From: Promethearchaeota archaeon
GTDB lineage: Archaea > Asgardarchaeota > Lokiarchaeia > Sigyniarchaeales > SOKP01
Reading direction: 5' to 3'
Assembly (NCBI GenBank): GCA_004524535.1
Contig: SDNY01000059.1
Location: forward strand, 1 to 21,333
Length of the DNA: 21,333 nt
The notes under the pieces were generated by a model. It was not told where the DNA came from. It did no database searches and saw only the letters and a program-made list of their open reading frames with translations. Shown here piece by piece: positions 904 to 21,333 of the stretch. Made by a program: the position numbers and the translations under genes. Position 1 is the stretch's first letter, and each line of letters starts with the position of its first letter.

Positions 904-1459
904 AAGCGAAGAAAAGAAAGATATTTTACAAGATTTAAGAATTGAGGATAAAATCGAGAAACGGTATGAGAATCAAGCCTTAATTAAAGCGGCACGGCTG
1001 CTCGGCGTCGAAGAAATATTAGTCGATTTCACAATCTCGGGAAAACATGGAAATATCAAAAATAAGATCGCCAGAAATTACCACGCAAAAAATCGGTTCC
1101 TTATCATCGTCCTATTCGGAAAACATCCAGATACACAAATCGCCAAACTAAGGGAATCATATTGCGGGAGCAGCACAGACCCCGATGTGAGCAAGCAGTA
1201 CGAGCACATTGAAATCATGTCGGCAGCGGAATTCCGGGATTATATCGGCATAAATCTGTACAGCACGGATGCGGCAAAGCACTGGGCAGCGGAATATAAC
1301 CGGGTTCAGACATTATGCGGGCCTAATGGCGTGTACAGCACTGATGCCAAGACCAGAAAGGATGCTCGGGACGAATTAATCCGACGCTCGGCACAGTCCA
1401 GAAAGAGGCTAATGACCACGCAGACGACCTTGCTAAGATATCTCGGGAAGGCAGATTAG
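887..1459 (+). CDS. Hypothetical protein, probably the 5'-truncated C-terminal part of a larger foreign gene (weak nuclease/toxin-like alpha/beta pattern)
   Basis: 190-aa ORF whose TTG start lies inside the host-derived repeat with no clear RBS; its stop overlaps the stop of the convergent ORF at 1456-1459. Confidence 0.45.
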   Translation: MWDLILSEEKKDILQDLRIEDKIEKRYENQALIKAARLLGVEEILVDFTISGKHGNIKNKIARNYHAKNRFLIIVLFGKHPDTQIAKLRESYCGSSTDPDVSKQYEHIEIMSAAEFRDYIGINLYSTDAAKHWAAEYNRVQTLCGPNGVYSTDAKTRKDARDELIRRSAQSRKRLMTTQTTLLRYLGKAD

Positions 1460-2655: not shown

Positions 2656-2816
2656 GTTTAAGTTTAAGAGTAGGTGAAATTTATGATTTATTCCTTTTCC
2701 TTACGTGTTATATAGAAATTCACAAATTTAAATATTTATATTTAGGCAAGAAAGGTAGACATTTAAAAAACCATTTGCTATAGTTATATAGGGGCGATCC
2801 CTGAATTAGGGAATAA

Positions 2817-2860
2817 CTTGATTCTTCTCGTCAAAATTATGATTTGTGGGATCTAATTCT
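2817..2860 (+). repeat. 44-bp direct repeat, right copy
   Basis: Identical to 860-903; contains the minus-strand stop (2853-2855) of the histidine kinase. Confidence 0.97.
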
Positions 2861-5574: not shown

Positions 5575-5794
5575 TCACATTTTTAGCTTATTAATAGATT
5601 TAATTTAGTTTTACAAAATTATATGTCATATTACATACAAGGCTTGATCAATTACGGGGATCATATGATCGACCACAAGATATAAATGATCGGTTTCCTA
5701 TATATATAGTGACCATTTCAATATATAAATTTTTGATTTTGAGAAAAATAAAAAAAACTCAAATAATTAAAAAAAAAAGGGTGTAAGAAAAAAA
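5575..5794. promoter_or_regulatory. Divergent promoter region between two FrhB-HTH genes
   Basis: Palindromic TATA-like ctatatatatag (5698-5709); TGATC at 5645, 5666 and 5687; degenerate operator TTTACAA-N6-ATGTCAT at 5610-5629. Confidence 0.6.
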
Positions 5795-7711: not shown

Positions 7712-7804
7712 TTGACAAGAAAACTAATCTTATTTTTTATTTTGACATTAATGAATTTTTTTGTCTTTTGATTTGCAAATTTTTTTGTCAAATCTTTTTT
7801 ATAA
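7712..7804 (+). promoter_or_regulatory. Operator-like sites and TATA box upstream of the LELKP/mtd/nfn genes
   Basis: TTGACAA (7712), TTGACAT (7742) and TTTGCAA-N6-TTGTCAA (7772-7791) at 30-bp spacing, followed by TTTTATAA at 7797-7804. Confidence 0.55.
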
Positions 7805-7876
7805 CTATTTGGAGATTTATCAAATGTAGAAATAAATGATAAATTAGTTAGAAATAAAAACCAAGGTTAGATTTAT

Positions 7877-8509
7877 TTGGAGATTCTTGAATTAAAACCT
7901 CTAAGAAATAAAAAAGTAAAATTATATTTAATAAGAAGTGAGGATAAGGATTTTACTAATGAAGATTATAGAAATCTCCGGGAAATATTAGAAAATGAAT
8001 TGTTTAGGTTTGCTGTTATTGATTTAAACAGAAAGAACTTAAAAGAAATTTATGAGGAACCACTTTTTAGATTTTTGGAAAAATTTAAAATACCTTATTA
8101 TAGTGTTGATATCCCTGAAAACGTTAAAGACTATTTATATGTTGAAATTCTTGAAAAAGAGGTTCAAATTAATGATTTAGAAAAAGAATATTCTCTCTTA
8201 TGTGTTGATCCAGAAAATCAAAATTCGTTTAAAGCTCAGAATTTAAAATCCTGGATTGAATTATTGAAAAAAGAAGTAGAAAATAAGAAAAAATATTTAA
8301 AATTAACCGTTAAACCTCAGTGGATTGTTAAACAAGTTCTGGATATTGCTAATAGGATTAATAATAACGAATTTTCAATTATGCATTTCACTTATGGAGA
8401 GCTTTATTCAGAATTAAAGAAATTATTTAAGGAGTATAATATCAAGGTCATTAAAATTGACATTGAAAAAAAAAACATTAAAAATATATTAATAGAAAAT
8501 AGGAGGTAA
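7877..8509 (+). CDS. Uncharacterised 'LELKP' family protein (degenerate TraB/GumN-like alpha/beta domain with coiled-coil insert)
   Basis: TTG start; MEILELKPLRNKK and VDIPENVKDYLY motifs shared with the proteins at 8516, 20755 and 21047. Confidence 0.75.
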   Translation: MEILELKPLRNKKVKLYLIRSEDKDFTNEDYRNLREILENELFRFAVIDLNRKNLKEIYEEPLFRFLEKFKIPYYSVDIPENVKDYLYVEILEKEVQINDLEKEYSLLCVDPENQNSFKAQNLKSWIELLKKEVENKKKYLKLTVKPQWIVKQVLDIANRINNNEFSIMHFTYGELYSELKKLFKEYNIKVIKIDIEKKNIKNILIENRR

Positions 8510-8515
8510 AATAAA

Positions 8516-10180
8516 ATGCAAGTACTAGAATTAAAACCTTTAAAAAATAAAAAACTCAAACTGATAATTGTTGAGAGCGAATTTCCCATTGATTGGTCAT
8601 TAGAAGCATCAGAGAATAATGAAATTCTTGGAAATTTATTTTTCATATCAAAAGAATATCTGAATTTCCTTGAAAATCTTATAAAGAAATATAAGCCTGA
8701 TTTTGCCATAGAAGACAAGGGACTTCGAATAGGAGAAGAGAAAATGAGTGATGATGATATATTTTTAAGATTATTTAGAAGTTCTGGAATTCCATATGAG
8801 TTAGTCGATATTCCAGATTATGCATTAAATTATATCACATCACCCATATACAATAAGAAAGCATTATTAAAAAAATTTTCAGAAGAAATTGAAGAATACA
8901 AAAAAAGAGGTCAAATTCATTATAATGATACTCATTTTCAGCAATTAGCTCAATGGCATCTATATTTAATGGATGATGTGAAAGAACAAGAGGATGAAAT
9001 TAGATATAAAATTCGAGAATCATGGATGATGATGGGGATATTAGAATTAGCCAAGAAACAAAATAAAAAGGAATTGACCGCCTTATTTATTTGTGACAAA
9101 AATCATTTTGATGGGATCATCTTTTTGGCTAAAGAATTAGAAATAGAATATGAGTTAATTAATATTAAAAAGGTTGCTAAAGGATTAGACAAAGCAAGCT
9201 CAGTTAAGGATATATTAGAATCCTCAGTCTTAGAAATTATGCCAATAAAAGTTAAAAAGAAGGAGAAAAAAGAGAAATTATTATATTTTTTTGATACAGA
9301 TGATTATTGTTCTCCATTTGATACTAATATGGGATATGATGCTGGATTTGATGCCGTTGTACCTTATTGCAGAATGACAGCAGATATGGTACCAAAATTA
9401 GTTCAAGATGCGATGTTTTCTAGGAAGGTAGGAGCACCTACAGTGTATTTCGTTGGAGGATCAAACGTAGAAGAAAGTGAAAAGATTGCGGAAGCAGTAT
9501 TAAAATCACTCGTTCCACCATTTGAATCTCCTGTAATTATTGATCCACGCGGGGCTCATACAACAGCATCTGCAATAGTAGCCAAGACAATCGAAGTTGC
9601 AAGGATACATGGTATTCAAGATTTATCTGGTAAAAAAATTGTTTGTTTAGGTGGTACTGGACCGGTTGGACAAATAGCTGCATTAATAGCTGCTAAGCTC
9701 CATGCAAATGTGGTGATAACTTCAAGGAGGGAAGATTTCGTTAAAAAATTAGCAGAAAGCTTAACAGAAAAAGCGGGTTCCGCAGCATCAAAAATAGAAG
9801 GAGTTTTGGCAGATTCTGAGGATGATTTTTATAAAATTGTGAAGGATGCTGATGTAATTTGGTCTGTGGGCAAAGCTGGGATACAAATGTTATCAAAAGA
9901 AGTAATGAATAAGCTTCGACCAAATAAGATTGCTGTAGATATTAATTTGGTCCCCCCTTATGGTATTGAAGGATTAGAACCAAACTTTAATGATAAAGAA
10001 TTCTATCCTGGAATATTTGGTTTAGGGGCTCTTGACATTGGTCGTTTGAAATATAAAATTGAGAGTATTATATTCAATGAGGCAGCTAATACAAAAGGGA
10101 AAAAATTATTCGATTATAACATTGCATTTGAAATTGCTTTTAAGATCTTAATAGGGGAAGAAATCAAAATTTCGATATAA
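8516..10180 (+). CDS. mtdB: Fusion of an N-terminal LELKP/TraB-like domain and an NAD(P)-dependent methylene-H4MPT/H4F dehydrogenase (MtdB/MtdA family)
   Basis: RBS aggaggt; C-terminal ~300 aa contain SPFDTNMGYDAG, VQDAMFSR, DPRGAHTTA, GGTGPVG and DINLVPPYGIEG, characteristic of MtdB-type enzymes. Confidence 0.85.
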   Translation: MQVLELKPLKNKKLKLIIVESEFPIDWSLEASENNEILGNLFFISKEYLNFLENLIKKYKPDFAIEDKGLRIGEEKMSDDDIFLRLFRSSGIPYELVDIPDYALNYITSPIYNKKALLKKFSEEIEEYKKRGQIHYNDTHFQQLAQWHLYLMDDVKEQEDEIRYKIRESWMMMGILELAKKQNKKELTALFICDKNHFDGIIFLAKELEIEYELINIKKVAKGLDKASSVKDILESSVLEIMPIKVKKKEKKEKLLYFFDTDDYCSPFDTNMGYDAGFDAVVPYCRMTADMVPKLVQDAMFSRKVGAPTVYFVGGSNVEESEKIAEAVLKSLVPPFESPVIIDPRGAHTTASAIVAKTIEVARIHGIQDLSGKKIVCLGGTGPVGQIAALIAAKLHANVVITSRREDFVKKLAESLTEKAGSAASKIEGVLADSEDDFYKIVKDADVIWSVGKAGIQMLSKEVMNKLRPNKIAVDINLVPPYGIEGLEPNFNDKEFYPGIFGLGALDIGRLKYKIESIIFNEAANTKGKKLFDYNIAFEIAFKILIGEEIKISI

Positions 10181-10190
10181 AAAATTCACA

Positions 10191-10201
10191 TTTTTTTTTT
10201 T
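10191..10201 (+). terminator. T11 tract between mtd and nfnA, possible terminator or attenuator
   Basis: Oligo-T 10 nt after the mtd stop codon. Confidence 0.35.
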
Positions 10202-10246
10202 GTTTTTAGTATTGTGAAGTACAACTAAATTAAGGTGAGATTAAAC

Positions 10247-11131
10247 ATGCCATACAAAATATTAGAAAAAAGAAAATTAGGACAAAGTGGAATATTGTAT
10301 GAAATGGTGTTAGACACACCATTAATTGCAGAAAAGGTTAATGCGGGAAATTTTATTATCATAAGAATTAATGATACAGGAGAACGAATTCCATTGACTG
10401 TTGCAGATTATGACAGAGAAAAAGGAACCATAACTATCGTTTTTCAAGTAGTAGGAAAAAGTACAAAATTACTTTCAAGTATTGATGTTAATGGGGTCAT
10501 TCTTGATATTGTTGGCCCTTTAGGAAAAAAGATACATATCAAAAAATATGAACATCCTATTGTCATTATAGGAGGTGGCGTTGGCATAGCACCTTGTTAT
10601 CCTCAAGCTAAAGAATTAAAGCAAGCTGGGAATAAAATTTTTATGATAATGGGTGCAAAAAATAAAGATTTTTTATTCTGGAAAGAAAAGACAAGAAGAA
10701 TAGTAGATGAATTAATAATTTGTACTGATGATGGTTCAGAAGGAATTAAGGGTATTGTAACAGATCCTTTAAAACAATTATTAAAAAGAGAGAAAATAAG
10801 TTTGGTTATTGCGATTGGACCTCTTATCATGATGAAGTATGTTTGTCTTATGACGGACGGTTCAAATGAATTACCCAAAGTAGTTACAATGGTATCGCTT
10901 AATACAATTATGGTTGATGGCACAGGAATGTGTGGAGGATGTCGATTTATGACTAAAGATGGAAAAGCCTATTTTGCATGCGTTGATGGACCAGATTTTG
11001 ACGGACATATAATTAATTTCGACAACCTTTTAAATCGAGCAAAAAGGTTTCATAAGAAAGAGGCTGAATCCTTGAATGTTTATAATAAGAAATGTAGGGC
11101 ACTTGAAAAATTTTATGAGGTGACAATCTAA
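10247..11131 (+). CDS. nfnA: NfnA/SudB (ferredoxin-NADP reductase small subunit, FAD + [2Fe-2S])
   Basis: GERIPLTVAD, GPLG, GGGVGIAP, TDDGS, DGTGMCGGCR...CVDGPDFD. ATG at 10247 follows RBS aggtga (the ORF track starts at GTG 10235). Confidence 0.92.
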   Translation: MPYKILEKRKLGQSGILYEMVLDTPLIAEKVNAGNFIIIRINDTGERIPLTVADYDREKGTITIVFQVVGKSTKLLSSIDVNGVILDIVGPLGKKIHIKKYEHPIVIIGGGVGIAPCYPQAKELKQAGNKIFMIMGAKNKDFLFWKEKTRRIVDELIICTDDGSEGIKGIVTDPLKQLLKREKISLVIAIGPLIMMKYVCLMTDGSNELPKVVTMVSLNTIMVDGTGMCGGCRFMTKDGKAYFACVDGPDFDGHIINFDNLLNRAKRFHKKEAESLNVYNKKCRALEKFYEVTI

Positions 11132-11132
11132 G

Positions 11133-13901
11133 ATGGAATTTCAAACACCTTTAGTTAAAGTTTTAATTGAAAATGAAGATAAAATCTTAAGCTCTAAGAA
11201 ATTTTCAAAGCAAGAATTTGAAATTTTTATTAAAGATTTAACTGTAGCAGAGAATCAAAGATACTTAATTTTAGAGAAAATAAGAGAAAAGGGAGATTAT
11301 GATTTAGATGTTTTACAAAAAACTCTAAATGTTTCCAAAAGAGAACTTATCTTAAATATTGAATTTCTAAAAGAACTTGGACTTCTTAAATTTATTAATA
11401 TGGAATCAGCCTTTTATGAAAATCTAGAAAATAAAAATGACATAAAAGGTTTATTTCCAAATATCTCTGAAATACAAGAGAAAAAAATATGTTCGGGATG
11501 TGGTCTATGTGTCTCAGTATGTCCTGTCAATGCAATCAAATTTAAAGATGATATTTTAACCATAGATCTCGATTTATGTATAAATTGTGGATTATGTTAT
11601 GCTTGTTGTCATAGAACTTTTTTTCCTAAAGAATTAGAAATAAATGAAGCTTGTAATGAAATAGATGCAAAATTTCAAGAAGAATTCAATGGGTTTAAAG
11701 AAATTCATACCGCACAGACGAGGGATTCTGAGATTAAAAGAGTTGCTCAAGACGGAGGGATAGTCACATCATTATTAAAAGCAGCTTTTAATGAGAAAGT
11801 GATAAAAAATGCTTTAGTTGTTGGAGAATTTAAAGATGGATTTTCACTAAAACCCTTGCCTCTATTGGTTAAAAATGAGGTTGAATTATTAAGGAGTAGC
11901 GGAACAAAATATAGCAATGCTCATATTTTACAGTTATTACATGAGGCTAGAGGAGTTGAGGATTTAGCAATTGTAGGGACTCCTTGTACTATGCAAGCGC
12001 TCAAAAAAATCTCTTTTTACCCATTAAATAAACCTTATTATAATAACATTAAGTTAAAAATAGGTTTATTTTGTATGGAATCATTTGATTATCAGAAAAT
12101 AATTGAGATTTTGAAAGAAGAATTCAATAAAATTCCAGAAGAAATAAAAAAAATGGATATCAATAACGGACATTTTTTTGTTTATGACAAAAATTACAAA
12201 TCTTACAGTATTCCCATTAAAAATATTAAAAAGTACGGTAGATATGGATGCTTTTTATGTAGCGATTTAACTACCGAACATTGTGATATTTCAGTTGGAT
12301 CAATTGGTTCTAATCCTGGTTGGTCAACTATGATTATAAGAACTGAAATAGGGCAAAATTTATTTCAGAAATCAACCAGTAGAAATTTGATTTTTACAAA
12401 AAAAATCAAAGAAGATGAGAAGAATTTCAGCCTATTAAGTAGAATTGCTTTATCCAAAATTAAACGATACAAAGAAATTCCACGGCAAAAAATGATTGAA
12501 CAAGATCCTAATATAAGAATCCAGAATTTTGAAGAAGTCCCTCAAGGTTTAACGGAAAAGATGGTCATTCTTGAAACTCAAAGGTGTTTACAATGTGGTA
12601 ATCCATTATGCATACAAGGTTGTCCCGTAAATGTTGATATTCCTCAGTTCATTAAATTATTAAGATCGAAAAAATATAAAGAAGCTTCAATGTTTATTAA
12701 ACAATATAATTTATTGCCAGCGATATGTGGAAGAGTGTGCCCTCAAGAAACTCAATGTGAAGGAGTATGTTTATTGGGAAATGTGGATAAACCTGTTGCG
12801 ATTGGTTACTTAGAAAGATTTATAGCAGATTGGGAACGAAAAAGTGAGATGAAAGAATGCCCTGAATGTCAAGCCCCTAAAAACATAAAAGTAGCAATTA
12901 TCGGCTCAGGACCAGCTGGTTTAACGTGTGCTGGAGAATTAACGAGGATCGGATATGATGTAACGGTTTTTGAAGCATTGCATACAGGTGGTGGTGTGTT
13001 AGTTTATGGTATTCCTGAATTTCGTTTACCAAAGATCATAGTTGAAGAGGAAATTGAATCTCTGAAAGACTTAGGAGTCAAAGTTAAATATAATATGATA
13101 ATTGGCAAAATTTTATCTATTGAAGATCTTAAAGAGAAGGGATATAAAGCTATTTTTATTGGCGTTGGAGCAGGATTACCAGTTTTTCTAAATATACCAG
13201 GATTAAGATTAAATGGGGTTACAAGTGCTAATGAATTTCTTACAAGAGCTAATTTAATGAAGGCATATAAATTTCCAGAATATGATACACCAATTAGAGT
13301 TGGAAAAATAGTAACTGTTATAGGAGGAGGAAATGTTGCCATGGATTCAGCTCGAGTTGCTCTAAGATTAGGAGCCAAGAAAGTAATAATTGTATATAGA
13401 AGATCTGAACAAGAAATGCCAGCAAGGAGGGAGGAATATCATCATGGAAAAGAAGAGGGTCTTGAATTCCAATTTTTGACAAATCCAATAGAATTCCTTG
13501 GTGATCAAGATGAGAATGTTAAACAAATGGTGTGCCAAAAAATGGAATTAGGAGACCCTGATGATTCAGGTAGAAGGAGCCCTATTCCAATAAAAGGTTC
13601 AGAATTTATAATTGATACCGATATGATTATTATCGCTATTGGAACTAGAGCTAATCCTATTTGTCCTAAATCTATTCCAAATTTAAATCTTAACAAATGG
13701 GGTTATATTGAAACAAATGATAAATGTCAGACAAATTTAGAAGAAATATTTGCTGGTGGAGATATTGTTACTGGAAGTGCTACTGTAATTTCTGCTATGG
13801 GTGCCGGAAAACGGGCAGCTGAAGGGATTCATGAATATTTAACAAAAAAATATAAGATTTCCGTTGATCATTTAGAGAAAATAGTTGATTTAACGCATTA
13901 A
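11133..13901 (+). CDS. nfnB: Fusion: wHTH + ferredoxin + FrhB-family domain + NfnB/SudA (GltD-like) large subunit
   Basis: N-terminal half: CSGCGLCVSVCP, AQDGGIVTSLL, SGTKYS, VGTPC, IGLFC, DISVGSIGS. From ~12480: RCLQCGNPLCIQGCPV, CGRVCPQETQCE, IGSGPAG, GGGNVAMD, YRRS, AGGDIVTGSATV. Starts 1 nt after the nfnA stop. Confidence 0.9.
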   Translation: MEFQTPLVKVLIENEDKILSSKKFSKQEFEIFIKDLTVAENQRYLILEKIREKGDYDLDVLQKTLNVSKRELILNIEFLKELGLLKFINMESAFYENLENKNDIKGLFPNISEIQEKKICSGCGLCVSVCPVNAIKFKDDILTIDLDLCINCGLCYACCHRTFFPKELEINEACNEIDAKFQEEFNGFKEIHTAQTRDSEIKRVAQDGGIVTSLLKAAFNEKVIKNALVVGEFKDGFSLKPLPLLVKNEVELLRSSGTKYSNAHILQLLHEARGVEDLAIVGTPCTMQALKKISFYPLNKPYYNNIKLKIGLFCMESFDYQKIIEILKEEFNKIPEEIKKMDINNGHFFVYDKNYKSYSIPIKNIKKYGRYGCFLCSDLTTEHCDISVGSIGSNPGWSTMIIRTEIGQNLFQKSTSRNLIFTKKIKEDEKNFSLLSRIALSKIKRYKEIPRQKMIEQDPNIRIQNFEEVPQGLTEKMVILETQRCLQCGNPLCIQGCPVNVDIPQFIKLLRSKKYKEASMFIKQYNLLPAICGRVCPQETQCEGVCLLGNVDKPVAIGYLERFIADWERKSEMKECPECQAPKNIKVAIIGSGPAGLTCAGELTRIGYDVTVFEALHTGGGVLVYGIPEFRLPKIIVEEEIESLKDLGVKVKYNMIIGKILSIEDLKEKGYKAIFIGVGAGLPVFLNIPGLRLNGVTSANEFLTRANLMKAYKFPEYDTPIRVGKIVTVIGGGNVAMDSARVALRLGAKKVIIVYRRSEQEMPARREEYHHGKEEGLEFQFLTNPIEFLGDQDENVKQMVCQKMELGDPDDSGRRSPIPIKGSEFIIDTDMIIIAIGTRANPICPKSIPNLNLNKWGYIETNDKCQTNLEEIFAGGDIVTGSATVISAMGAGKRAAEGIHEYLTKKYKISVDHLEKIVDLTH

Positions 13902-14920
13902 ACTCGCTTATCTAATTCTATTTTTTTACAAATCAATATCTTATTATTTTCTATAATATTAAGTAAATAATCATTAATTCCTGGAATGATAGGTGAGATA
14001 AATAATATTTCCTCTTCAGGAAACCACAACTCAATTTTTTCATTAAAAACTTCTTTTTCAAAAAAATCCTTAACAAAGGTAATTTTTACTCTTAAATCTC
14101 TAATCGATTTGGAAAAGATATTTTTTAGAGTTATTTCCATTTCTTGATTGCCTTGGTTTAATTCAATATTTGATATTTCAAATGGCGCCTTTAATTGAAA
14201 TGTTTCATTATTACTTTTAGTGGAATCAAAAAATCTTATATTCAAAGAGTCTTGTTCTTTTTTATGATTGAAAATGTTAGATATCTTTATACCTTTTAAC
14301 ATTAAATATGAAAGAGCTTTTTGTAATTTAATTGATGTTGCATCATATTGTTCTATGATGGATTCAAAAAACTCTTTACATGCAGAATCTATCATGTTTA
14401 TCATCTTTTTTTTCATTAACTCTCCTTTATTGATGGTTTCAAGAATAGGGGGTGTTTTAATTATTTCAAACCTAAATAATTCAGACTCAATGATATTATA
14501 TAAAGTATTTTGGAAATTCTTTATAACTATATCTGAAATTTTATTAAGAAGTGCTCTACCAAAGATATCAATATCGGTCGGTATTCTTACAATTAATATT
14601 ATTGTTTCGGGAGTTTCTTCCATCAATCCGGCTCTTTTTTTTTTCCTTTTTGATTTCACAAGAAATTTTTGAGCAAAATACATATTTCCTTCATATTCTA
14701 AATCAACTCGATTAAAATCCTCATGATCCTTAATCTCTAAAAACCAGATTGGGTGGATCTTAATTAAACGTAATTTTTCACCATCATTTCTTATAGATTC
14801 ATCTGGATAAAATAAAAGAGGTACCGCTCCTTGCATCTCATCAAAATATAACATATAAATTTCATAAAATACTGAGAAATTCTTCTCTGTCTTCTTTTCT
14901 TCAACAAAAAATTCATTCAT
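13898..14920 (-). CDS. Hypothetical protein with N-terminal uDENN/longin-like (NPRL2-like) domain and C-terminal Ig-like beta domain
   Basis: IYMLYFDEMQGAVPLLFYP matches the hhh-FD-x3-G-x-hhh-YP start of uDENN/longin domains; the last ~95 aa show an alternating beta-strand pattern (MEITLKN...LRVKITF). Confidence 0.6.
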   Translation of the reverse strand: MNEFFVEEKKTEKNFSVFYEIYMLYFDEMQGAVPLLFYPDESIRNDGEKLRLIKIHPIWFLEIKDHEDFNRVDLEYEGNMYFAQKFLVKSKRKKKRAGLMEETPETIILIVRIPTDIDIFGRALLNKISDIVIKNFQNTLYNIIESELFRFEIIKTPPILETINKGELMKKKMINMIDSACKEFFESIIEQYDATSIKLQKALSYLMLKGIKISNIFNHKKEQDSLNIRFFDSTKSNNETFQLKAPFEISNIELNQGNQEMEITLKNIFSKSIRDLRVKITFVKDFFEKEVFNEKIELWFPEEEILFISPIIPGINDYLLNIIENNKILICKKIELDKRV

Positions 14921-14980: not shown

Positions 14981-16291
14981 TCAATGAGTAGCACATGATA
15001 TACATGGGTCAAAAGCTCTAATTATTAACTGAATTTCTTTCTTTATCGTATCAATATCAGTTTTTTCATATAATTTTTGAGCATAGTTCGTTATCATATG
15101 GTTTATGAGAGGAATATTAATCTCTGTGGCAATAAATAGTTTAATTTGATCGATTGAATTTTCTTTATTGAGATGATAATGATGCAAAAGAATCCCTCTG
15201 GGGGCCTCAACTACCCCTATCCCATCCATATTTTTTATATTTGTTAACGATAAAAGGCTCTCATTTTTATTTACTAAAGGGTCATTCAGAAGTTCCAAGG
15301 CTTTAAATGTCTCAACATACATTTCTAATAAGCGAATAAAATTCGTAAATAATATATTTTTATACCAAGTTTTATCAAAAACGCTTAAAAAATTAGAAAC
15401 TTCTTCTATATCATAACTTTCTACAATATGATTGCGTGCTAAGGGACCTACTAAAATATTATTACCAATAGAAAAATCAATCCCATTTAAATCAATATCT
15501 TTATTAAAATAGTTAGTATAGTTTTTTTCTATAAAGTTTGTAATTTTTTTATTATCTTCCTTAAATCCAAGAATACCAGAATATCTATCAAAGATTCCAT
15601 GATTATGCATTCCTAAAAAGATAGGATTAGGAATCATAAACTCCTCAGGGGGTATTTTTTTAGAGAATAGTTCAATGAATCTTTCTATGACTACCTCCAA
15701 ATTCATTAATACTTTTTGAAAATATTTTCTTGCTAATGTTATATTTTTTTTTGATGGATTGTAAATAACTCCTCCTGGAATTACTGTTATTGGATGAACA
15801 GATCTACCCCCAAATATTTTATCAATTTCATTTCCTATTTTTATTAATTCAAAGAATATTGTTGTTAATTGGGGATAATTTTTTATAATAGCATATGGTG
15901 ATAGTATTTTTTGATGAATATTAAAAATCCTTAATAAATCTGGAAATGCTTGAAAAAAGAAATGGAGGCTATGAGATTTGATTAATTCGCCTGTCATTAA
16001 TAATTTCCGCACTAATATTGATTGTTCAGAAGGTTCAATTCCATAAATATTCTCAATTGTTTTGCAACTAGCGATTGATTGCGAAGCGTGACATAAACCA
16101 CATATTCGTGAAATAATTTTAGGAAGATCACATAATTTTTTATGTTTCAATATGTGTTCAAACCCTCGATAAGCTTCTATTTCAAATGTAGCTTGTGTTA
16201 TCTCTTCATTTTTATTATCAAGATATATTTTCACTTTACCATGACCTTCAACTCTCGTACAAACATCAACGATTTTTAACAAATTCCTCAC
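14981..16291 (-). CDS. mvhA: Group 3 (MvhA-like) [NiFe]-hydrogenase large subunit with atypical, sensor-like motifs
   Basis: TRVEGHG, L1 RICGLC, GGRSVHP, EAPRG, L2 DPCISCATH*. The GTG start overlaps the mvhG TGA stop (GTGA). Confidence 0.88.
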   Translation of the reverse strand: MRNLLKIVDVCTRVEGHGKVKIYLDNKNEEITQATFEIEAYRGFEHILKHKKLCDLPKIISRICGLCHASQSIASCKTIENIYGIEPSEQSILVRKLLMTGELIKSHSLHFFFQAFPDLLRIFNIHQKILSPYAIIKNYPQLTTIFFELIKIGNEIDKIFGGRSVHPITVIPGGVIYNPSKKNITLARKYFQKVLMNLEVVIERFIELFSKKIPPEEFMIPNPIFLGMHNHGIFDRYSGILGFKEDNKKITNFIEKNYTNYFNKDIDLNGIDFSIGNNILVGPLARNHIVESYDIEEVSNFLSVFDKTWYKNILFTNFIRLLEMYVETFKALELLNDPLVNKNESLLSLTNIKNMDGIGVVEAPRGILLHHYHLNKENSIDQIKLFIATEINIPLINHMITNYAQKLYEKTDIDTIKKEIQLIIRAFDPCISCATH

Positions 16292-17052
16292 CTTTTAAAC
16301 GTTGGTTTTGAAAATCGATAAAAAATACCATCATAATTTCTTATCTTTTTTGAAAGATGAATTAAACTGATAAAATTAATTGTATTGGAAAAAAAGCTTT
16401 TTGAAACAGGCCCCATACATCCTTCACAAGGAAGACCTTCTTTAATACATACATGTTCACATCCATCTCGAGTGATAGGTCCCAGACATAAAATTCCTCT
16501 TTTTAAAAAACACTCAGTATCTTCTTCGACAGGTATTATTTCCTCTGGATTGGGATTAATTTGAGTAATTTTTGTTTGAAAATTTTCCTCAGCCTCTCCT
16601 CTTAATGGACATGTTGCACATAAATTCTTTTTTGGAATATCAACATCAATTTCTCTATTCTCAATTAATTTTATTAGACAATTACCTAACAATTTTGAGG
16701 GCGGCGGGCATCCAGGAATGACACCATCTATTTCAATATATTTAGAAACGGGTTCTGCTATCCTTTTTTTCGAAAGACTTAAAATACCTCCGAAGCCCGC
16801 ACAAGTCCCTATGGAATAAACCTTTTTAGTTTGTTTCCTTATTTTTTTAAGTAAATTAACTTGTGAGTCTTCAGAAACACATCCTTCTATAAGTGCGATA
16901 TCACATTCTTCAATTTCTTCTACATCCATTATAAAAGGAAAGTAAATTATTTTTGTCCTTTCAAGGAACTGAGGGAATATATCTAAAGATAATAGGGTAG
17001 AAATACATCCACTACACCCTGTTAATGATGAAATTAATATTTTAGGCTTCAA
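16288..17052 (-). CDS. mvhG: Group 3 [NiFe]-hydrogenase small subunit (MvhG-like)
   Basis: GCSGC, EGCV, GTCAGFGG, PGCPP, CATCP, CFLKRGILCLGPITRDGC...CEGCMGP; TTG start with ggagga RBS overlapping the upstream stop; no Tat signal. Confidence 0.88.
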   Translation of the reverse strand: MKPKILISSLTGCSGCISTLLSLDIFPQFLERTKIIYFPFIMDVEEIEECDIALIEGCVSEDSQVNLLKKIRKQTKKVYSIGTCAGFGGILSLSKKRIAEPVSKYIEIDGVIPGCPPPSKLLGNCLIKLIENREIDVDIPKKNLCATCPLRGEAEENFQTKITQINPNPEEIIPVEEDTECFLKRGILCLGPITRDGCEHVCIKEGLPCEGCMGPVSKSFFSNTINFISLIHLSKKIRNYDGIFYRFSKPTFKR

Positions 17053-19591
17053 ATTTAATCTCCTCCGATAATTGATTATAAAAAGTTTTCACCATCTCAG
17101 CAAATTTTATACCTTCTACAGCATTCATATTTTCAATTATAATGCGTTTCTTATATTTGGGATTTAAAACATCTTTCAATAATTCAATTTTACGTTGAAT
17201 TTTTTCAATGCCGTCAATATATCTACATGAGTTTCTCCTACAACCAATTATCATAACTCCATCAAATCCATGTTCAAATGAATTAATTATGAAGCTTGTG
17301 TCAATGCGCCCTGTACAAGGAACTTGAACTATGAAGATGTTTGGATTATAGGAGATCTTTTTTAATCCTGCATCATCTGCAGCTGCGTAACCACACGAAC
17401 GACAGCAGAATGCTATAATTTTTGGCCGTTTTTTAAATTTTGAGAGTATTTCAATCGTTCTATTAATCTTTTCTGTGGTATCTATGTTCATTTCTATCGC
17501 ATTAGTCGGACACACACTTACACAGGTACCGCATCCCTTACATTTAAACATGTCGATGCTTAATTTATCTGATTCTATGGTTATAGCATTATATGGACAT
17601 GATTTCGAGCATAATCCACATATTCCACATAATTCCTCATTGATTTCAATTCCACTAAACTCTGATATTAAAGAATCCTTAGATAAAAGTGCTATTATTT
17701 TTAATGCAACATTATTAGCTGTAGAAATCGTAGAATTATAATCCAAAGGTCCGAAAATTGTCCCTACTCCATATATTCCAGAGGCTATTGTTTCTTCGCT
17801 CATAAAACCGTTATCATCAAGAGTGAAATCCATAGTTTTTCGCAAGATTTTCAAATCTTTATTCGGCACCATCATGACATTCAAGACTATTAAATCACTC
17901 GGATATTCTTTAGAGTTAGCAACAATTATATTTTTATTGTTTCTTTCAATAATTTTCAAGTCATTTACATAATGAAACTTTTTATCCATATGAGTTGATA
18001 ACGAATTATGATTTTCCTTAAGTTTGTTTAAATCATAAAAAACATTTACCTCACAATTAGGAATATGTTGTTTTATTGATTCTAGATATTTTAATGCTAA
18101 AATATCATTATACTCTAATCGATTATATATAGGACCTACGCATTGGATAATTGAAACAGATTCAGGAGGCACTTTACTTGAGATTTTCAAGATATCTCCA
18201 TTTGTAAAACCATCAGAAGAAAGCATTCTTTCGAATTCGGGAGATGTAATAATATCATTTTTTGGATTATAATGATATTCTTCTAAATCTGAATAAAGAT
18301 CAGACCCAATTGCGATTACTTTTGTACCAACTTTGATTCTAATTTTTTCTAATTTCTGATCTAAGTCAATCGCTTTATTAATACAGGCGCGTTCACAAAT
18401 TCTACAATTGATACAATTTTTTATGTCCTCCTCATCAATTATAGGAGCAAATGGATAAGAATGAATAAATGGAATATAAATTATTTTTCTATTTGTTAGT
18501 TCAAATTCATATTGATTAGGTTTTTCTATACTACATACTTCAATGCATTGTTTACAACCTGTACACTTTTTTTCATCAACAAAACGAGGTTTTTTAATTA
18601 AATCAATCGTAAAATTCCCAACCTCTCCAGATACGTTCTCAATTTCCGTATTAGTTAAAATTTTTATATTTTTTTCGTTAACCAATTCAGCAATTAATTC
18701 AGAAATAAAACAAATTGAACAATCTCCTATATTTGAAATTCGATCCCATCTAGCAACCTTCCCCCCTAATGTCGGTGATTTTTCAATAAGATATACTTTA
18801 ATTCCAGCTTTAGCCAAATTTAGTGCAAGAGTCATACCTCCTATACCCCCTCCTATAATTGCACAACTTTTTTCAATCTCAACTCTCTTTGCTTTCACTT
18901 TTTTTTGCATTATTACTCTTTCTATAGCCGCTTCTATTAACAACTTAGCTTTTTCTAATATGAGCAGGGGATCGAATTCTCTACCATTTGAATGATGTAC
19001 CCATGCACATTGTTCTCGTATATTCGCAATCTCAATATTGGCATGCTCTATAACCTTTTCAAATATCCTCTCAAATAGATGTTGATGTGTTTTCGGTGAA
19101 CATGCCGCTATAACTATTTTATTAATGAAATTTTCTTTAACCCAATTTGTAATTTTGCTAAAATTCTTTTGTTGGCATAAATTCTCAAAAATTTTTACGG
19201 AAACAACATTCCGAAGCTTATTGATATAATTTTCTAACGCATTTACATTGATAATATTTGAAATTTCAGTATTACAATTACATATGATTACCCCTACTCG
19301 ACTTATAGTACTTCCTTTTGCACCTAAATATTCATCAACGTTTTCTCCTGATAAAATTCTTTTATTAATATTAAGAATTTGTAATATTTTTTTACCATCT
19401 TCCGTAATAAAATATGATTTTTTATCTTTATTTATAAGAGAACCGAGTTTTTTTAAATGAAAATTTAATTGACCTGTTGTCTCTAAATTTAATCGCTCCA
19501 TTAAATCCGTATAAGGGATATATCCTTCTTTTTCTAAAATAAGTAAAATTTTTCGCCTAAATGGATGAGATAATATAGAATAAATATCCAA
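17042..19591 (-). CDS. hdrA: Fusion: ArsR-like winged HTH + divergent HdrA + MvhD
   Basis: LSHPFRRKILLIL...TGQLNFHLKKL...YFITEDGKK (wHTH); AACSPKTH, NIREQCAWVH, GGGIGG, EFERML and two ferredoxin pairs (HdrA); IIAFCCRSCGYAAAD, VPCTGRID, GCRRNSCRY (MvhD). Confidence 0.9.
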   Translation of the reverse strand: MDIYSILSHPFRRKILLILEKEGYIPYTDLMERLNLETTGQLNFHLKKLGSLINKDKKSYFITEDGKKILQILNINKRILSGENVDEYLGAKGSTISRVGVIICNCNTEISNIINVNALENYINKLRNVVSVKIFENLCQQKNFSKITNWVKENFINKIVIAACSPKTHQHLFERIFEKVIEHANIEIANIREQCAWVHHSNGREFDPLLILEKAKLLIEAAIERVIMQKKVKAKRVEIEKSCAIIGGGIGGMTLALNLAKAGIKVYLIEKSPTLGGKVARWDRISNIGDCSICFISELIAELVNEKNIKILTNTEIENVSGEVGNFTIDLIKKPRFVDEKKCTGCKQCIEVCSIEKPNQYEFELTNRKIIYIPFIHSYPFAPIIDEEDIKNCINCRICERACINKAIDLDQKLEKIRIKVGTKVIAIGSDLYSDLEEYHYNPKNDIITSPEFERMLSSDGFTNGDILKISSKVPPESVSIIQCVGPIYNRLEYNDILALKYLESIKQHIPNCEVNVFYDLNKLKENHNSLSTHMDKKFHYVNDLKIIERNNKNIIVANSKEYPSDLIVLNVMMVPNKDLKILRKTMDFTLDDNGFMSEETIASGIYGVGTIFGPLDYNSTISTANNVALKIIALLSKDSLISEFSGIEINEELCGICGLCSKSCPYNAITIESDKLSIDMFKCKGCGTCVSVCPTNAIEMNIDTTEKINRTIEILSKFKKRPKIIAFCCRSCGYAAADDAGLKKISYNPNIFIVQVPCTGRIDTSFIINSFEHGFDGVMIIGCRRNSCRYIDGIEKIQRKIELLKDVLNPKYKKRIIIENMNAVEGIKFAEMVKTFYNQLSEEIKFEA

Positions 19592-19690
19592 TTTTTACCT
19601 ATCCTCTCCTTTTTCAATTTTTTTTTTTTATTAAAAAATAGTATGGATATTCTAAAATTAAATGACAATTTTAACAAATTATTTATCTAC

Positions 19691-19720
19691 ATGACAAAAA
19701 TAGTTGTCAAAATATATAAA
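19691..19720 (-). promoter_or_regulatory. Minus-strand TATA box with an operator immediately downstream (hdrA-mvh operon)
   Basis: ATGACAA-aaatag-TTGTCAA at 19691-19710; 19711-19720 reads TTTATATATT on the minus strand. Confidence 0.6.
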
Positions 19721-19746
19721 TCTATCTATTGTGATCAGTCATCAGG

Positions 19747-19771
19747 ATTTACCAAATTGATCATGGTAAAT
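19747..19771. promoter_or_regulatory. Inverted repeat ATTTACCA-N9-TGGTAAAT, candidate second regulator site
   Basis: Perfect 8-bp arms with TGATCA in the spacer; lies between the divergent hdrA and lrp genes. Confidence 0.4.
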
Positions 19772-20037: not shown

Positions 20038-20463
20038 TTGCTTATTGATGTGATTGACCTAAAAATACTTGAAGAATTGAAACAAGATAGTAGAGTAAGT
20101 TTCAATGAAATCTCTCAAAAAGTTGGAAAAACTGAAGCAACTGTTCGTCGTCGCGTAAAAAAATTAATTGATGAAGGAATAATTAAAAGGTTTACAATTG
20201 AATATTCTATTGATTCAAAGCCAAAAACTCGTGCAACTGTTAAAATCGAGCCTGATTTTAAGGAAATTAAAAGGATACTAAATAGTTTAGCGCAAATTCA
20301 AGAGATCACGGATATTTGGAGGCTTTCAGGAGAATGTGGATTGCTATTGAAAGTAGAAATTGATTCCATTGAGCTCTTTAATCCGTTGATTGAAGAGAAA
20401 ATTAGTACCGTTAATGGTATTAGAATAGTAGAAACATGTTTTATAACAGATATAATTAAGTAA
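20038..20463 (+). CDS. Lrp/AsnC family transcriptional regulator
   Basis: DVIDLKILEELKQDSRVSFNEISQKVGKTEATVRRRVKKLIDEGIIKRFT HTH plus C-terminal RAM domain. Confidence 0.93.
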   Translation: MLIDVIDLKILEELKQDSRVSFNEISQKVGKTEATVRRRVKKLIDEGIIKRFTIEYSIDSKPKTRATVKIEPDFKEIKRILNSLAQIQEITDIWRLSGECGLLLKVEIDSIELFNPLIEEKISTVNGIRIVETCFITDIIK

Positions 20464-20635
20464 TATATTTTTTTTGAAATTTAATTGATTTAACCTTATT
20501 TTTTTCTTTTTTTTTAAAAATAAGATTTTGATAAAAATATTTTTCAAACTTTTGTAATCAAAAATTTACTATTATGTAAAATCACTTAATTTGCTAATAA
20601 GATTCTTGATTTGTAATTTAATTAAGATTGTAAAT

Positions 20636-20655
20636 TTGACAAAACAAATTGTCAA
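20636..20655. promoter_or_regulatory. Perfect palindromic operator TTGACAA-N6-TTGTCAA
   Basis: ttgacaa aacaaa ttgtcaa, upstream of TTTATAT (~20684) and the second LELKP gene pair. Confidence 0.7.
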
Positions 20656-20754
20656 TAACCTAGAAATTTCTCTTATCAAATTCTTTATATTTTGGGGATT
20701 TCACTTTATTCTTGGAATAGTAATATGATAAAAAAAGAAAGAGGTGGTTTAAAA

Positions 20755-20988
20755 ATGGAAATTTTAGAAGTTAAACTTACTCCAGTTGAAGATATAAAAA
20801 AAACCCAGGATAATGAATTCTTAAAAGAACTAGCAGAGGGATATCTTGAAGTAGAGATTTCCAAAAAGAAGGCGTTACTAAAAGAATATTCAAAAGCTTA
20901 TGATAATTTACAAGATAAAGATTCCTTTAATGGACAGTACCTAGAGACATTGATATCCATATTAAGAGATGAGCTAAAGGATAATTAA
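20755..20988 (+). CDS. 77-aa miniature LELKP-family protein (N-terminal peptide + helical hairpin only)
   Basis: ATG at 20755 after RBS gaggtgg; MEILEVK; AEGYLEVEISKKKALLKEY...DSFNGQYL aligns with VKDYLYVEILEKE...NSFKAQNL (7877) and NKKALLKKF (8516). Confidence 0.75.
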   Translation: MEILEVKLTPVEDIKKTQDNEFLKELAEGYLEVEISKKKALLKEYSKAYDNLQDKDSFNGQYLETLISILRDELKDN

Positions 20989-21046
20989 CCATTTTTTTCC
21001 TTAATTATAAATATAATATTAATTTCTGAAGGAGGTGTATAATAAA

Positions 21047-21333
21047 ATGGAAGTTTTGGAATTAAAACCAATAAAAAATAAAAATATGACAGTTTATTTA
21101 ATTGAAAAACCAAAAAATTCAATTAATTCACAGAATTTAAGATGTCTCATCGATTTTTTACTCACTAAAGAAATTAAATTTATCTCTATAGATTTAGAGG
21201 ATAGAGATTTGAACAATGGAAAAAATGCATCAATAGAAAAATTACTTGAAGAAATTAAAGTTCCATGTCATCGCGTTGATATTCCTGAATACGCAAAGGG
21301 ATATCTTTATGAAGAGATATCCCAAAAGGAGGA
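21047..21333 (+). CDS. LELKP-family protein (partial, runs off the window; not in the ORF track)
   Basis: RBS ggaggtg at 21031; MEVLELKPIKNKNMTVYLIE...FISIDLE...KVPCHRVDIPEYAKGYLYEEISQKE, open to the window end. Confidence 0.85.
   Translation, partial: MEVLELKPIKNKNMTVYLIEKPKNSINSQNLRCLIDFLLTKEIKFISIDLEDRDLNNGKNASIEKLLEEIKVPCHRVDIPEYAKGYLYEEISQKE

Follow-up and report, generated by a model that had tools for sequence, protein, structure and literature searches.

A promethearchaeal [NiFe] hydrogenase operon encodes an HdrA-MvhD flavoprotein with an N-terminal winged helix-turn-helix domain: a candidate autoregulatory redox enzyme

Results and discussion

Organization of the locus

The DNA considered here, a window of 21,333 nucleotides (contig SDNY01000059.1 of assembly GCA_004524535.1, C151 in our numbering), comes from a Promethearchaeota archaeon of the Lokiarchaeia with a genome of 3.66 Mb in 198 contigs that is 99% complete by marker genes. 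On its minus strand lies an operon for a fusion protein that joins a winged helix-turn-helix (wHTH) domain to an HdrA-like flavoprotein and an MvhD domain, followed by the small and large subunits of a [NiFe] hydrogenase and by a conserved fourth gene (Table 1). The open reading frames (ORFs) of the fusion protein and the two hydrogenase subunits share 11 nt and 4 nt at their junctions. An earlier note on this DNA had described an operon with overlapping start and stop codons in which the HdrA-MvhD protein begins with an ArsR-like wHTH and lacks a core Fe-S motif, the large subunit has two sensory signatures, no hdrBC is present and an operator-like palindrome abuts the operon's own TATA box. 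This anatomy is borne out by the results that follow; the functional proposal attached to it, that of a repurposed H2-responsive regulator, is taken up after them.

Table 1. Coordinates of the hydrogenase operon, the domains of its fusion protein, and the promoter elements and linked genes of the window
Feature	Position (nt)	Strand	Basis or remark
Promoter core: TATA box TTTATATA (19713-19720) and palindrome O1 (19692-19709)	19692..19720	-	
Fusion gene, wHTH-HdrA(no HA4)-MvhD	17042..19591	-	849 aa, TTG start; ORF, Pfam, NCBIfam, orthologues
wHTH domain, residues 1-75	19367..19591	-	PF24038, AF2 model, 1y0u
Linker from wHTH to HA3-bearing N-terminal domain, residues 76-97	19301..19366	-	low pLDDT at 78-96
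HdrA-like flavoprotein part, residues 98-714	17450..19300	-	aligns to 8rvu_a residues 13-650, E 1.1e-113
Degenerate HA4 remnant, residues 483-500	18092..18145	-	no CxGxRD...CSxxCC; most variable stretch
MvhD domain, residues 716-849	17045..17446	-	PF02662; 5odc_D match E 6.4e-26
MvhG-type small subunit	16288..17052	-	254 aa; PF01058, NCBIfam VhuG
[NiFe] large subunit	14981..16291	-	436 aa; motifs, Pfam, NCBIfam, solved chains
Conserved fourth operon gene	13898..14920	-	340 aa; orthologues after MvhA in many loci
Second half-site cluster, with palindrome O2 TTGACAA-N5-TTGTCAA (20636-20655)	20529..20731	+	upstream of ORFs 20692-20988 and 21035-21331
Third half-site cluster, 4 sites	7713..7842	+	upstream of operon starting at 7877
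Candidate co-regulated redox operon	7877..13901	+	Pfam, Atlas lead; divergent neighbour in many loci

At the N-terminus of the fusion protein, residues 2-72 match PF24038 (DUF7347) in a scan of the whole protein (E 5e-10, 39.9 bits) and more strongly in a scan of the domain by itself (E 1.2e-11, 45.1 bits), the cut-off being 27.6 bits; HTH_24, HTH_45 and HTH_20 match it as well. The AlphaFold2 (AF2) model shows the canonical wHTH succession of helix-strand-helix-helix-strand-strand-helix at a pLDDT of ~80, with its recognition helix at residues 39-52 (nt 19436-19477); among solved chains the domain comes closest to 1y0u, a putative ArsR repressor (E 0.0085). By both Pfam score and topology the domain is thus an ArsR-type winged helix. 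In an alignment of 71 orthologues, the source of all conservation and entropy figures given here, its entropy of 0.61 is the second lowest among the eight domains of the fusion protein, and in alignment A1, a set of 16 orthologue sequences also used for AF2, residues N76, R78, L80 and G82 of the linker that follows it are invariant. A library of 1.84 billion representatives contains 850 relatives of the domain at E <=1e-3; the 150 that were listed are mostly proteins of 90-320 aa with the domain at the N-terminus, and include some tandem ArsR-type proteins.

When two copies of the wHTH were modelled together, the homodimer prediction scored 0.45 against 0.01 for the best control, passing a mark that 20 of 30 solved homodimers and one of 23 solved monomers attain; at least 77% of contacts are common to the runs, with pLDDT >=80. 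The predicted interface comprises residues 1-8, 13 and 68-80 and leaves the recognition helix and the wing free. This prediction supports an ArsR-like dimer formed through the terminal helices, and its pass may itself stem from likeness to solved ArsR dimers.

The body of the protein is HdrA-like. Residues 98-843 match the NCBIfam HdrA2 model with E 4e-176, at a score of 587.4 bits that lies below the curated cut-off of 1100, and the scores for the NCBIfam HdrA models (431.6 and 382.7 bits) likewise fall below their cut-offs of 1300-1400; Pfam FAD/NAD and Fer4 families are matched in the same part. Alignment to 8rvu and 5odc brings out the hallmarks of HdrA, namely the thioredoxin-reductase-like FAD fold, an N-terminal HA3 domain with its four cysteines and two 2x[4Fe-4S] ferredoxin domains, one inserted and one C-terminal, along with the C291/C294 pair. 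The cysteines of HA3, the C291/C294 pair, both ferredoxin domains and the MvhD domain are conserved at 0.99-1.0. What is missing is the core Fe-S motif HA4 (CxGxRDx6-8CSxxCC), at the position of which, relative to the solved HdrA 8rvu, the window protein has IIQCVGPIYNRLEYNDILA; this stretch shows the highest entropy in the protein (1.64), and C484 is retained in just 20% of orthologues. The source genome encodes 17 HdrA-like ORFs and has 15 MvhD matches. An HA4-type motif is present in 14 of the 17, and the wHTH occurs in the window protein only, so that, judged by sequence comparison, the loss of HA4 is specific to the wHTH form of HdrA.

The C-terminal domain belongs to the MvhD/FlpD family by score (PF02662 on residues 725-842, E 1.4e-34, 119.2 bits against a cut-off of 22.3) and by its cluster cysteines C729, C730, C733, C759, C784 and C789, conserved at >=0.99. 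None of the 42 matches to the CCG (HdrB-type) domain in the genome lies on C151, and the HdrB/HdrC partner expected beside an HdrA is accordingly absent from the window.

The small subunit matches PF01058 (E 1.1e-17) and, at a score well short of the curated cut-off, NCBIfam VhuG (E 2.4e-34). The large subunit has motifs L1 (RVEGH, nt 16241-16255), L2 (RICGLCHASQ, nt 16079-16108) and L5 (DPCISCATH, nt 14984-15010), and L1 and the four Ni-Fe-binding cysteines (RVEGH, RICGLC, DPCISC) are as in group 3c. It departs from that group in that L2 closes with Gln, where the aligned solved chains 7t2r_D, 5odc_F and 9sw2_F have His. In addition L5 forms the last residues of the protein, which stops at the motif His, as against ~25 further residues in solved MvhA/VhuA/HydL; the C-terminal extension of group 3c enzymes, which a maturation endopeptidase removes, is thus missing. 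These two features, which the earlier note had taken for sensory signatures, are nearly constant among the orthologues: L2 Gln is found in 71 of 72 orthologous large subunits, the 72nd being aligned in its C-terminal part only, and the motif His is the C-terminus in 67 of the 69 with a complete motif-bearing C-terminus. A Gln in place of the L2 His is also known from regulatory hydrogenases, where it is Gln67 of HoxC. The best matches of the large subunit spread across groups 3b, 3c and 3d (7t2r 2.5e-58, ShyA 2.8e-51, VhuA 3.6e-50), and no group 2 model comes near the top, which argues against membership in group 2. New Asgard [NiFe] groups 3e-3l have been reported in a preprint, to go by the part of it considered here. 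The large subunit diverges faster than the fusion protein, at 44-64% identity as against 64-79%.

A search for a separate canonical hydrogenase in the genome, as the earlier note had advised, turned up a second locus of the [NiFeSe] Vhu type with canonical catalytic motifs (C51:10303-15633). It encodes, in order, a 436-aa small subunit, a large subunit with L2 His and no L5 motif, and a short VhuU-like ORF that supplies the L5 motif and a C-terminal extension and has an in-frame TGA, probably for selenocysteine, at the first L5 cysteine; downstream follow hdrC, hdrB, an ORF on the opposite strand and hypC. As a separate observation, a third [NiFe] large-subunit type, 28-32% identical to that of the window and encoded by ORFs of ~437-491 aa, occurs in some genomes of the family, namely G105, G125, G056, G066, G146, G065, G113 and G121.

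Distribution of the wHTH-HdrA-MvhD architecture

To assess whether this architecture recurs together with a Gln-type large subunit, as had been suggested, we compared the best 80 of 106 relatives confirmed when one genome per species was scanned. The 80 named loci all come from metagenome-assembled genomes, and the named relatives all belong to Promethearchaeota/Lokiarchaeia. Of the 80 loci, 76 align with the query up to its wHTH end, and the other four are cut by contig ends; mvhG directly follows the fusion gene in 75, the other five again being cut by contig ends; and mvhA is present in 72, the loci without it ending too early. The combination of wHTH-HdrA-MvhD with an L2 Gln large subunit therefore recurs across the set. 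The best 120 relatives in the protein database (67-99% identity, nearly all 816-855 aa) give a similar picture: by our own count PF24038 is listed in 109 of them, and the remaining 11 have been called ~30 residues (in one case ~56) shorter at the N-terminus. In the database these relatives go by no more specific names than 'hydrogenase iron-sulfur subunit', 'FAD-dependent oxidoreductase' or 'heterodisulfide reductase subunit A', and full-text literature searches found no description of a wHTH-HdrA-MvhD architecture, in keeping with the earlier note, whose author knew of none.

A survey of 150 genomes across the order, with families labelled f1 (the window's own), f2 and f4, places the window-type large subunit (E <=1e-100) in f1 exclusively, where ~65 of the 89 genomes that are >=90% complete possess it; these are the 'positive' genomes referred to below. 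This count, like those of 8/65 and 65/65 given later, was made by eye and is a lower bound, and G113 was scored MvhA-negative merely because its contig ends inside the operon. In f4 a version of the large subunit 33-38% identical to that of the window is encoded by loci with the same divergent gene pair; it has RICGLCHASQ and only 5-6 residues past the terminal His, and the accompanying wHTH-HdrA-MvhD protein is 52-53% identical and has no HA4 motif. The 14 genomes sampled from f2, a sister family, give weak large-subunit matches or none (best E 3e-41, most ~1e-22, one without a match). Four more distant wHTH-bearing clusters, all without HA4, comprise two with full-length wHTH-HdrA-MvhD proteins and two in which the wHTH precedes an HdrA with no MvhD match. 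Because the wHTH, the loss of HA4, the L2 Gln and the absent or minimal extension co-occur in the orthologues and in f4, and 14 of the 17 HdrA-like ORFs of the source genome keep HA4, these four unusual features travel together as one syndrome. Statements on expression and proteomes of cultured strains, as given in the portions of PMC7015854 and PMC11216029 considered here, are not transferable to these proteins, because the loci are all from metagenome-assembled genomes and the matches in f2 are weak.

A palindromic element at the operon promoter

The palindrome O1 (TGACAA-N6-TTGTCA) follows the TATA box TTTATATA of the operon by 3 nt, and an additional half-site lies near it at 19663-19668, so that the operator-like element indeed abuts the TATA box. 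The degenerate form TGAYAA-N6-TTRTCA is found twice in the window, as against 0.02 occurrences expected, and none of 100 shuffles reached two. The exact palindrome has eight sites in the genome, of which just two are intergenic, both in the window. With a position weight matrix (PWM) built from 15 non-redundant orthologous promoters, a scan of the genome gave 38 bits for the operon's own site, 23 bits for the next and <=18 bits for the rest. By both scans the element is therefore not a general promoter feature of the genome. A wider regulon is not claimed, the sole candidate being the moderate 23-bit site, which lies before an acyl-CoA synthetase gene on C18. Separately, the only other DUF7347 wHTH of the genome is N-terminal on a 666-aa protein (C72:3142-5142), and directly upstream of its gene is a weak PWM match of 12.5 bits.

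Orthologous promoters share the succession TTTAWATA, 3-4 nt, TGAYAA-N6-TTRTCATG and a further TTRTCA ~20 nt downstream, placed ~85-160 nt before the start codon. Under a strict pattern that allows at most one substitution, applied to the 71 loci with enough upstream sequence, the TATA-plus-palindrome element is present at the operon promoter in 50, as against seven matches elsewhere in the 1.93 Mb scanned. In 21 of these 50 it stands before an FrhB-like gene that heads the operon, ~1.3 kb upstream of hdrA, which indicates that the element belongs to the operon promoter and not to the immediate upstream region of hdrA. Even the 21 pattern-negative loci have 3.7 half-sites per 300 nt where 0.9 are expected, and over 76 upstream regions the corresponding figures are 3.39 and 0.83. 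Within the window, 300-nt stretches with at least four half-sites are confined to two places, the promoters before 7877 and before 20692/21035, and the hydrogenase promoter itself has three half-sites. Upstream of its TATA box there is also a perfect 8-nt inverted repeat, ATTTACCA-N9-TGGTAAAT, at 19747-19771.

As to which protein might recognize these sites, the AsnC/Lrp gene at 20038-20463 was considered and rejected: homologues of >=50% identity occur in three of 80 loci, none of them promoter-adjacent. Searches by domain, by Atlas and by fold gave no DNA-binding domain or fold in the other conserved neighbour genes. With AsnC not conserved and the other neighbours devoid of such a domain, the wHTH of the fusion protein is the only recognizable DNA-binding domain that always accompanies the sites.

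Linked redox operons and the phyletic distribution of the half-sites

The operon that starts at 7877 encodes a TraB/GumN-like protein (a weak lead), a fusion of this protein to an MtdB-like methylene-H4MPT dehydrogenase, a SudB-like protein and an FrhB-GltD protein, and the promoter before 20692/21035 precedes a small ORF and a gene for a further TraB/GumN-like protein. In many loci the linked genes diverge from the hydrogenase operon, with which they share one common intergenic region. An MtdB-like gene (E <=1e-40) is found in 65 of 65 hydrogenase-positive genomes, often on the same contig, as against 9 of 24 negative ones, and this co-occurrence ties the complex to the redox module of the H4MPT Wood-Ljungdahl pathway. 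In 8 of the 65 positive genomes the subunit of this complex is the only [NiFe] large subunit found with the window query. Together with the MtdB link this argues that the role of the complex goes beyond sensing on behalf of another [NiFe] hydrogenase.

The half-sites before the MtdB operon follow the fusion gene: a cluster is present in all 12 genomes that have the fusion gene and in one of six that lack it. The 12 positives are the window, all ten further hydrogenase-positive genomes that were examined, and G113, in which the fusion gene lies at a contig edge; in the six fusion-negative genomes the best HdrA match has 36-39% identity and starts near residue 90. The cluster is absent from five of these six (G067, G103, G108, G118 and G128).

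The TraB/GumN-like proteins share a domain of ~200 aa, beginning MEVLELKP..., that occurs in three paralogous copies (7877-8509, 8516-9235 and 21035-21331), the second forming the N-terminal part of the ORF 8516-10180, in which it is fused to the MtdB-like dehydrogenase. Its TraB/GumN leads are weak (structure TM 0.56, feature score 0.84 in the Atlas), and by the Atlas the fusion of this domain to an MtdB-like protein also occurs in Bathyarchaeota. In L024, a locus of which the FrhB-like head gene (4735-5898, without a wHTH) is of the kind found in 21 loci, the fourth gene is replaced, ~600 nt after mvhA, by one for a 409-aa Fer4+CCG protein, an HdrC/HdrB-like fusion (11214-12443).

A hydrogenase-flavoprotein that may regulate its own operon

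In the Mvh-Hdr complex, as set out in the sections of PMC13580544 drawn on here, the high-potential branch leads from the FAD through HA4 to HdrB and the low-potential branch from the FAD through HA3 to HA5/HA6 and a polyferredoxin, HA3 being a 'shuttle' cluster on a mobile arm. Given that HA4 alone has been lost and the other cysteines are conserved, the electron-input path and the whole low-potential path (HA3, both ferredoxin domains and the FAD fold) are under strong purifying selection and the HdrBC branch is gone. Normal flavin-based bifurcation with HdrBC is hence unlikely for this protein; it may instead simply pass electrons between H2 on the one side and ferredoxin, or for instance an FrhB-like protein, on the other.

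The reading that we tentatively put first, at a confidence a little short of calling it probable, is that of a PutA-like 'trigger enzyme', a non-bifurcating hydrogenase-flavoprotein that regulates its own expression. A cytoplasmic Mvh-type [NiFe] hydrogenase would be wired through the [2Fe-2S] MvhD domain to an HdrA-like FAD/Fe-S protein that has lost its HA4 exit to HdrBC and kept the low-potential route from HA3 to the inserted ferredoxin domain. Such a complex could exchange electrons between H2 and ferredoxin or a ferredoxin-like partner with no bifurcation, and would serve the neighbouring MtdB-like/SudB/FrhB-GltD redox module of the Wood-Ljungdahl pathway. The N-terminal ArsR-type wHTH would dimerize on the HdrA dimer and bind TGAYAA-N6-TTRTCA; these putative operators would overlap the transcription start region of the operon itself and also mark the promoters of the linked operons. 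As the wHTH is tethered to the HA3-bearing domain, which is the mobile arm in solved Mvh-Hdr complexes, a redox or conformational state set by H2 would change its binding to DNA, and the flavoenzyme would by analogy moonlight as its own repressor in the fashion of PutA.

Two marks of a trigger enzyme are present at this locus, the fusion of a predicted DNA-binding domain to an enzyme and an operator-like element at its own promoter, and sequence-specific binding of the one to the other is suggested by the conservation of the operator and its phyletic correlation with the fusion gene. The domain anatomy, the motif losses, and the conservation, distribution and phyletic links of the operator are observations, to which the electron route, DNA binding by the wHTH and its redox coupling are added as inferences. 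No other single explanation accounts as well for operators that are conserved, specific to the locus and tied to the promoter as a putative regulatory function of the wHTH. Of the proposal in the earlier note that an Mvh-Hdr module had been repurposed into an H2-responsive regulator, the comparative evidence thus favours the regulatory role of the wHTH; a dedicated sensor fits less well than a trigger enzyme, and we favour a moonlighting enzyme because the electron path is retained and the operon is linked to metabolic genes.

More specifically, the complex of hydrogenase and flavoprotein could act as a transcription factor in its own right and so be a one-component H2 sensor, a claim that is possible though somewhat doubtful. 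Here H2 oxidation at a sensor-like [NiFe] site would set the redox and conformational state of the mobile arm of HdrA, and the wHTH dimer would thereby be released from, or loaded onto, TGAYAA-N6-TTRTCA. If this were true, the genes of the hydrogenase and the Wood-Ljungdahl redox module would in Asgard archaea respond directly to H2 supply, without a kinase or second messenger.

Alternative explanations

The alternative that survives best is that the complex is an enzyme only, its wHTH playing a structural or docking part, in dimerization or towards an FrhB-like or polyferredoxin partner, and that a separate regulator binds the palindromes. We regard it as a serious rival, though less likely than not. 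Against it, operators specific to a locus, like the exact intergenic palindromes here, are usually served by a regulator encoded there, and no other conserved DNA-binding gene lies nearby. A number of observations weigh on its side and against a regulatory wHTH. There is a precedent in BamF, an MvhD-like subunit of class II benzoyl-CoA reductase, the wHTH of which acts as a structural protein-protein adaptor in the portion of bioRxiv 10.64898/2026.04.10.717634 considered here. Within the window an FrhB-like protein (4126-5574, minus strand) has a C-terminal TrmB domain (28.5 bits in a scan of the domain by itself, the cut-off being 25.6), and two others (5795-7243 and 11133-13901, both on the plus strand) show sub-threshold N-terminal HTH matches (E 0.004-0.01). 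This further, solid wHTH-redox fusion hints at a general role of such domains other than in binding DNA, and wHTH-redox enzyme fusions may be a recurrent theme in the lineage. Since the motif TGxLN(F/Y)HLK of the 'recognition helix' is common to the whole DUF7347 family, the helix is not tuned to one operator. The nearest relatives of the wHTH, for their part, are annotated as ArsR-family regulators, and the interface of the predicted dimer is formed without the recognition helices and wings, which stay free. The FrhB-like head gene in 21 loci and the Fer4+CCG gene of L024 suggest larger metabolic assemblies. The AF2 model of the whole fusion protein (pLDDT 59, pTM 0.40) is not good enough to locate the wHTH with respect to the rest of the enzyme.

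The sites themselves also offer this alternative some purchase. G027, a genome 99% complete and without an orthologue of the fusion gene, yet keeps four half-sites before the MtdB operon, for which reason a trans-acting regulator could own the sites. The five genomes without the cluster also lack the first gene of the MtdB operon, so that the correlation of cluster and fusion gene may reflect only the inheritance of a module, and the genomes compared are related and hence not independent. Against this the cluster does track the fusion gene, in 12/12 genomes with it as opposed to 1/6 without. A second conserved motif, GATCA/TGATC, is found within 40 nt upstream of the TATA box in 41 of the 50 loci with the strict element, where 2.7 are expected; its distance to the TATA box is mostly 7 or 17-20 nt (~19728-19736 in the window), and it is repeated directly downstream of the palindrome in several loci. 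Its presence indicates that other factors act at the hydrogenase promoter, and GATCA may be the site of one of them. The conservation of the palindrome may moreover be in part that of promoter or initiator sequence, because its right half-site overlaps the expected transcription start.

A second alternative, which we judge unlikely, goes to the other extreme and makes of the complex a pure one-component H2 sensor with no metabolic flux, in which H2, bound and slowly oxidized at a [NiFe] site of sensor type, would reduce the cofactors, with altered DNA binding by the wHTH as the sole output. The evidence from the operator applies to it equally well. The L2 Gln (71/72) and missing extension (67/69) point to the low-turnover chemistry of a sensor, to the detriment of a metabolic role, the more so as regulatory hydrogenases are described as lacking the extension in the passages of PMC8159394 and PMC7294309 consulted. 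That absence is, however, not specific to sensors, as the extension is normally missing in the catalytic groups 4c and 4e as well (PMC7294309, same passages), and the best matches of the large subunit are to catalytic group 3 enzymes (7t2r, 5odc, ShyA, VhuA) rather than to group 2. The loss of HA4 and of the HdrBC branch and the faster evolution of the large subunit would fit a sensor, but the complete ferredoxin-side path and the FAD fold are strictly conserved and are not obviously needed by one. Similarly, the second hydrogenase in the genome (C51, with its selenocysteine, L2 His and extension) would provide an enzyme to regulate, but the eight of 65 genomes with a sole large subunit imply that there is often no other [NiFe] enzyme for such a sensor to control. 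Finally, the operon always co-occurs with metabolic redox genes and has no linked histidine kinase.

An artefact, in which an assembly or frame error would have fused a small independent wHTH gene to hdrA or the TTG would not be the true start, as the TTG itself and the 11 of 120 relatives called shorter without a Pfam match could suggest, is ruled out by the in-frame fusion in 76 of 80 independent loci (the other four cut by contig ends) and by the conserved linker, with no stop between the domains, an ATG in orthologues at the position of the window's TTG, and a Shine-Dalgarno-like GGAGAGG at 19603-19609, 11 nt ahead of it.

Relationship to known systems and significance

Among wHTH regulators, SurR of Thermococcales is switched by redox state and controls hydrogenase genes. 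PutA, which we use as the model for an autoregulatory flavoenzyme, represses its own divergently arranged regulon through an N-terminal DNA-binding domain and is released from DNA by the redox state of its flavin; it differs from the complex of the window in having a ribbon-helix-helix domain, in responding to proline and in moving to the membrane. The likeness of PutA, a trifunctional flavoenzyme of proline utilization as PMC5293562 introduces it, to our locus is one of logic only and involves no homology.

By homology the closest systems are MvhAGD-HdrABC and VhuAGD-HdrABC of methanogens (5odc, 8rvu, 9sw2), which have the same kinds of subunits and the same order of cofactor domains. The MvhD domain, HA3, the FAD-adjacent Cys pair and the ferredoxin domains all align with the solved complexes (HdrA E 1.1e-113, MvhA 3.5e-52). 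The window proteins differ in the loss of HA4, the lack of hdrBC in the operon, the fusion of HdrA to MvhD and a wHTH, the L2 Gln and absent extension of the large subunit, and NCBIfam scores of 587 against 1100 and 171 against 800. HdrA with a C-terminal MvhD is likewise found in HdrA2 of Methanosarcinales and in the long HdrA fusions of Asgard/TACK archaea (PMC11237513), and multiple HdrA paralogues, as in our source genome, are usual in Asgard genomes by the same paper; the parts of it considered here mention neither an N-terminal wHTH nor a loss of HA4 in the Asgard HdrA-MvhD fusions.

The HoxBC/HupUV sensors of group 2b share with the window the lack of an extension on the large subunit (PMC8159394, PMC7294309, as above), but they are group 2 proteins that signal through a separate histidine kinase (HoxJ/HupT) and a response regulator, whereas the protein of the window is nearest to group 3 and belongs to an HdrA/MvhD complex that carries its own predicted DNA-binding domain, with no histidine kinase linked. 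BamF, in an HdrA-like bifurcating complex, is an MvhD-type adaptor with a wHTH; its wHTH is situated inside the MvhD-like subunit and contacts BamI, to judge from the same portion of the preprint (bioRxiv 10.64898/2026.04.10.717634), whereas that of the window is a separately folding N-terminal domain of ArsR type on HdrA, encoded beside an operator-like element. Archaeal regulators of the ArsR/SmtB type (1y0u; DUF7347, HTH_20, HTH_5) have the same fold and motifs and a dimer through the terminal helices like that predicted here, but are small and stand-alone, while the wHTH of the window is covalently part of an 849-aa Fe-S flavoprotein.

H2 dependence and exchange are central to models of Asgard metabolism and of the origin of eukaryotes. 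Were the regulatory hypothesis correct, this complex would represent a new kind of H2 sensor, a hydrogenase with its own DNA-binding domain where known sensors use a separate kinase, and the first candidate for an H2-responsive regulator in the Asgard lineage. The widespread form of HdrA without the HdrBC branch that is defined here bears on which Asgard 'Mvh-Hdr' genes can bifurcate, and because that branch is absent, metabolic reconstructions in which this operon is labelled MvhADG-HdrABC should be reconsidered. A domain of 97 residues and 60 bp of DNA would suffice for a direct test of the hypothesis, with no need for culturing.

Other features of the locus and genome

The fourth gene of the operon has no Pfam match, and in an Atlas search its product resembles only hypothetical proteins of Promethearchaeota. 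Its AF2 model (pLDDT 72) gave no more in a Foldseek comparison with the PDB than a generic C-terminal beta-sandwich (TM ~0.18). The model consists of an N-terminal alpha/beta part (strand-strand-helix-strand-strand-strand-helix), a helical middle and the C-terminal beta-sandwich; by eye, from the secondary structure, the N-terminal half is longin/roadblock-like.

No histidine kinase is encoded in the operon or among its conserved neighbours. Some 11 kb from the operon, an ORF on the minus strand (2853-3911) encodes a membrane-anchored, histidine-kinase-like protein (HATPase_c E 8.5e-18), which lies outside the set of proteins compared with other loci and shows no apparent connection with the operon. 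Positions 1001-3000 have a GC content of 0.41-0.44, as against 0.23-0.34 in the rest of the window, and may be foreign DNA; of the ORFs in this stretch, 887-1459 and 1456-2655, the second was tested and gave no Pfam match.

Selenoproteins have reportedly been found in Asgard archaea. In the source genome three further MvhD matches (C96:770-1138, C27:10029-10397 and C83:7135-7500) have two in-frame TGA codons each, and many HdrA paralogues in related genomes contain TGA inside their reading frames, which is consistent with their being selenoproteins.

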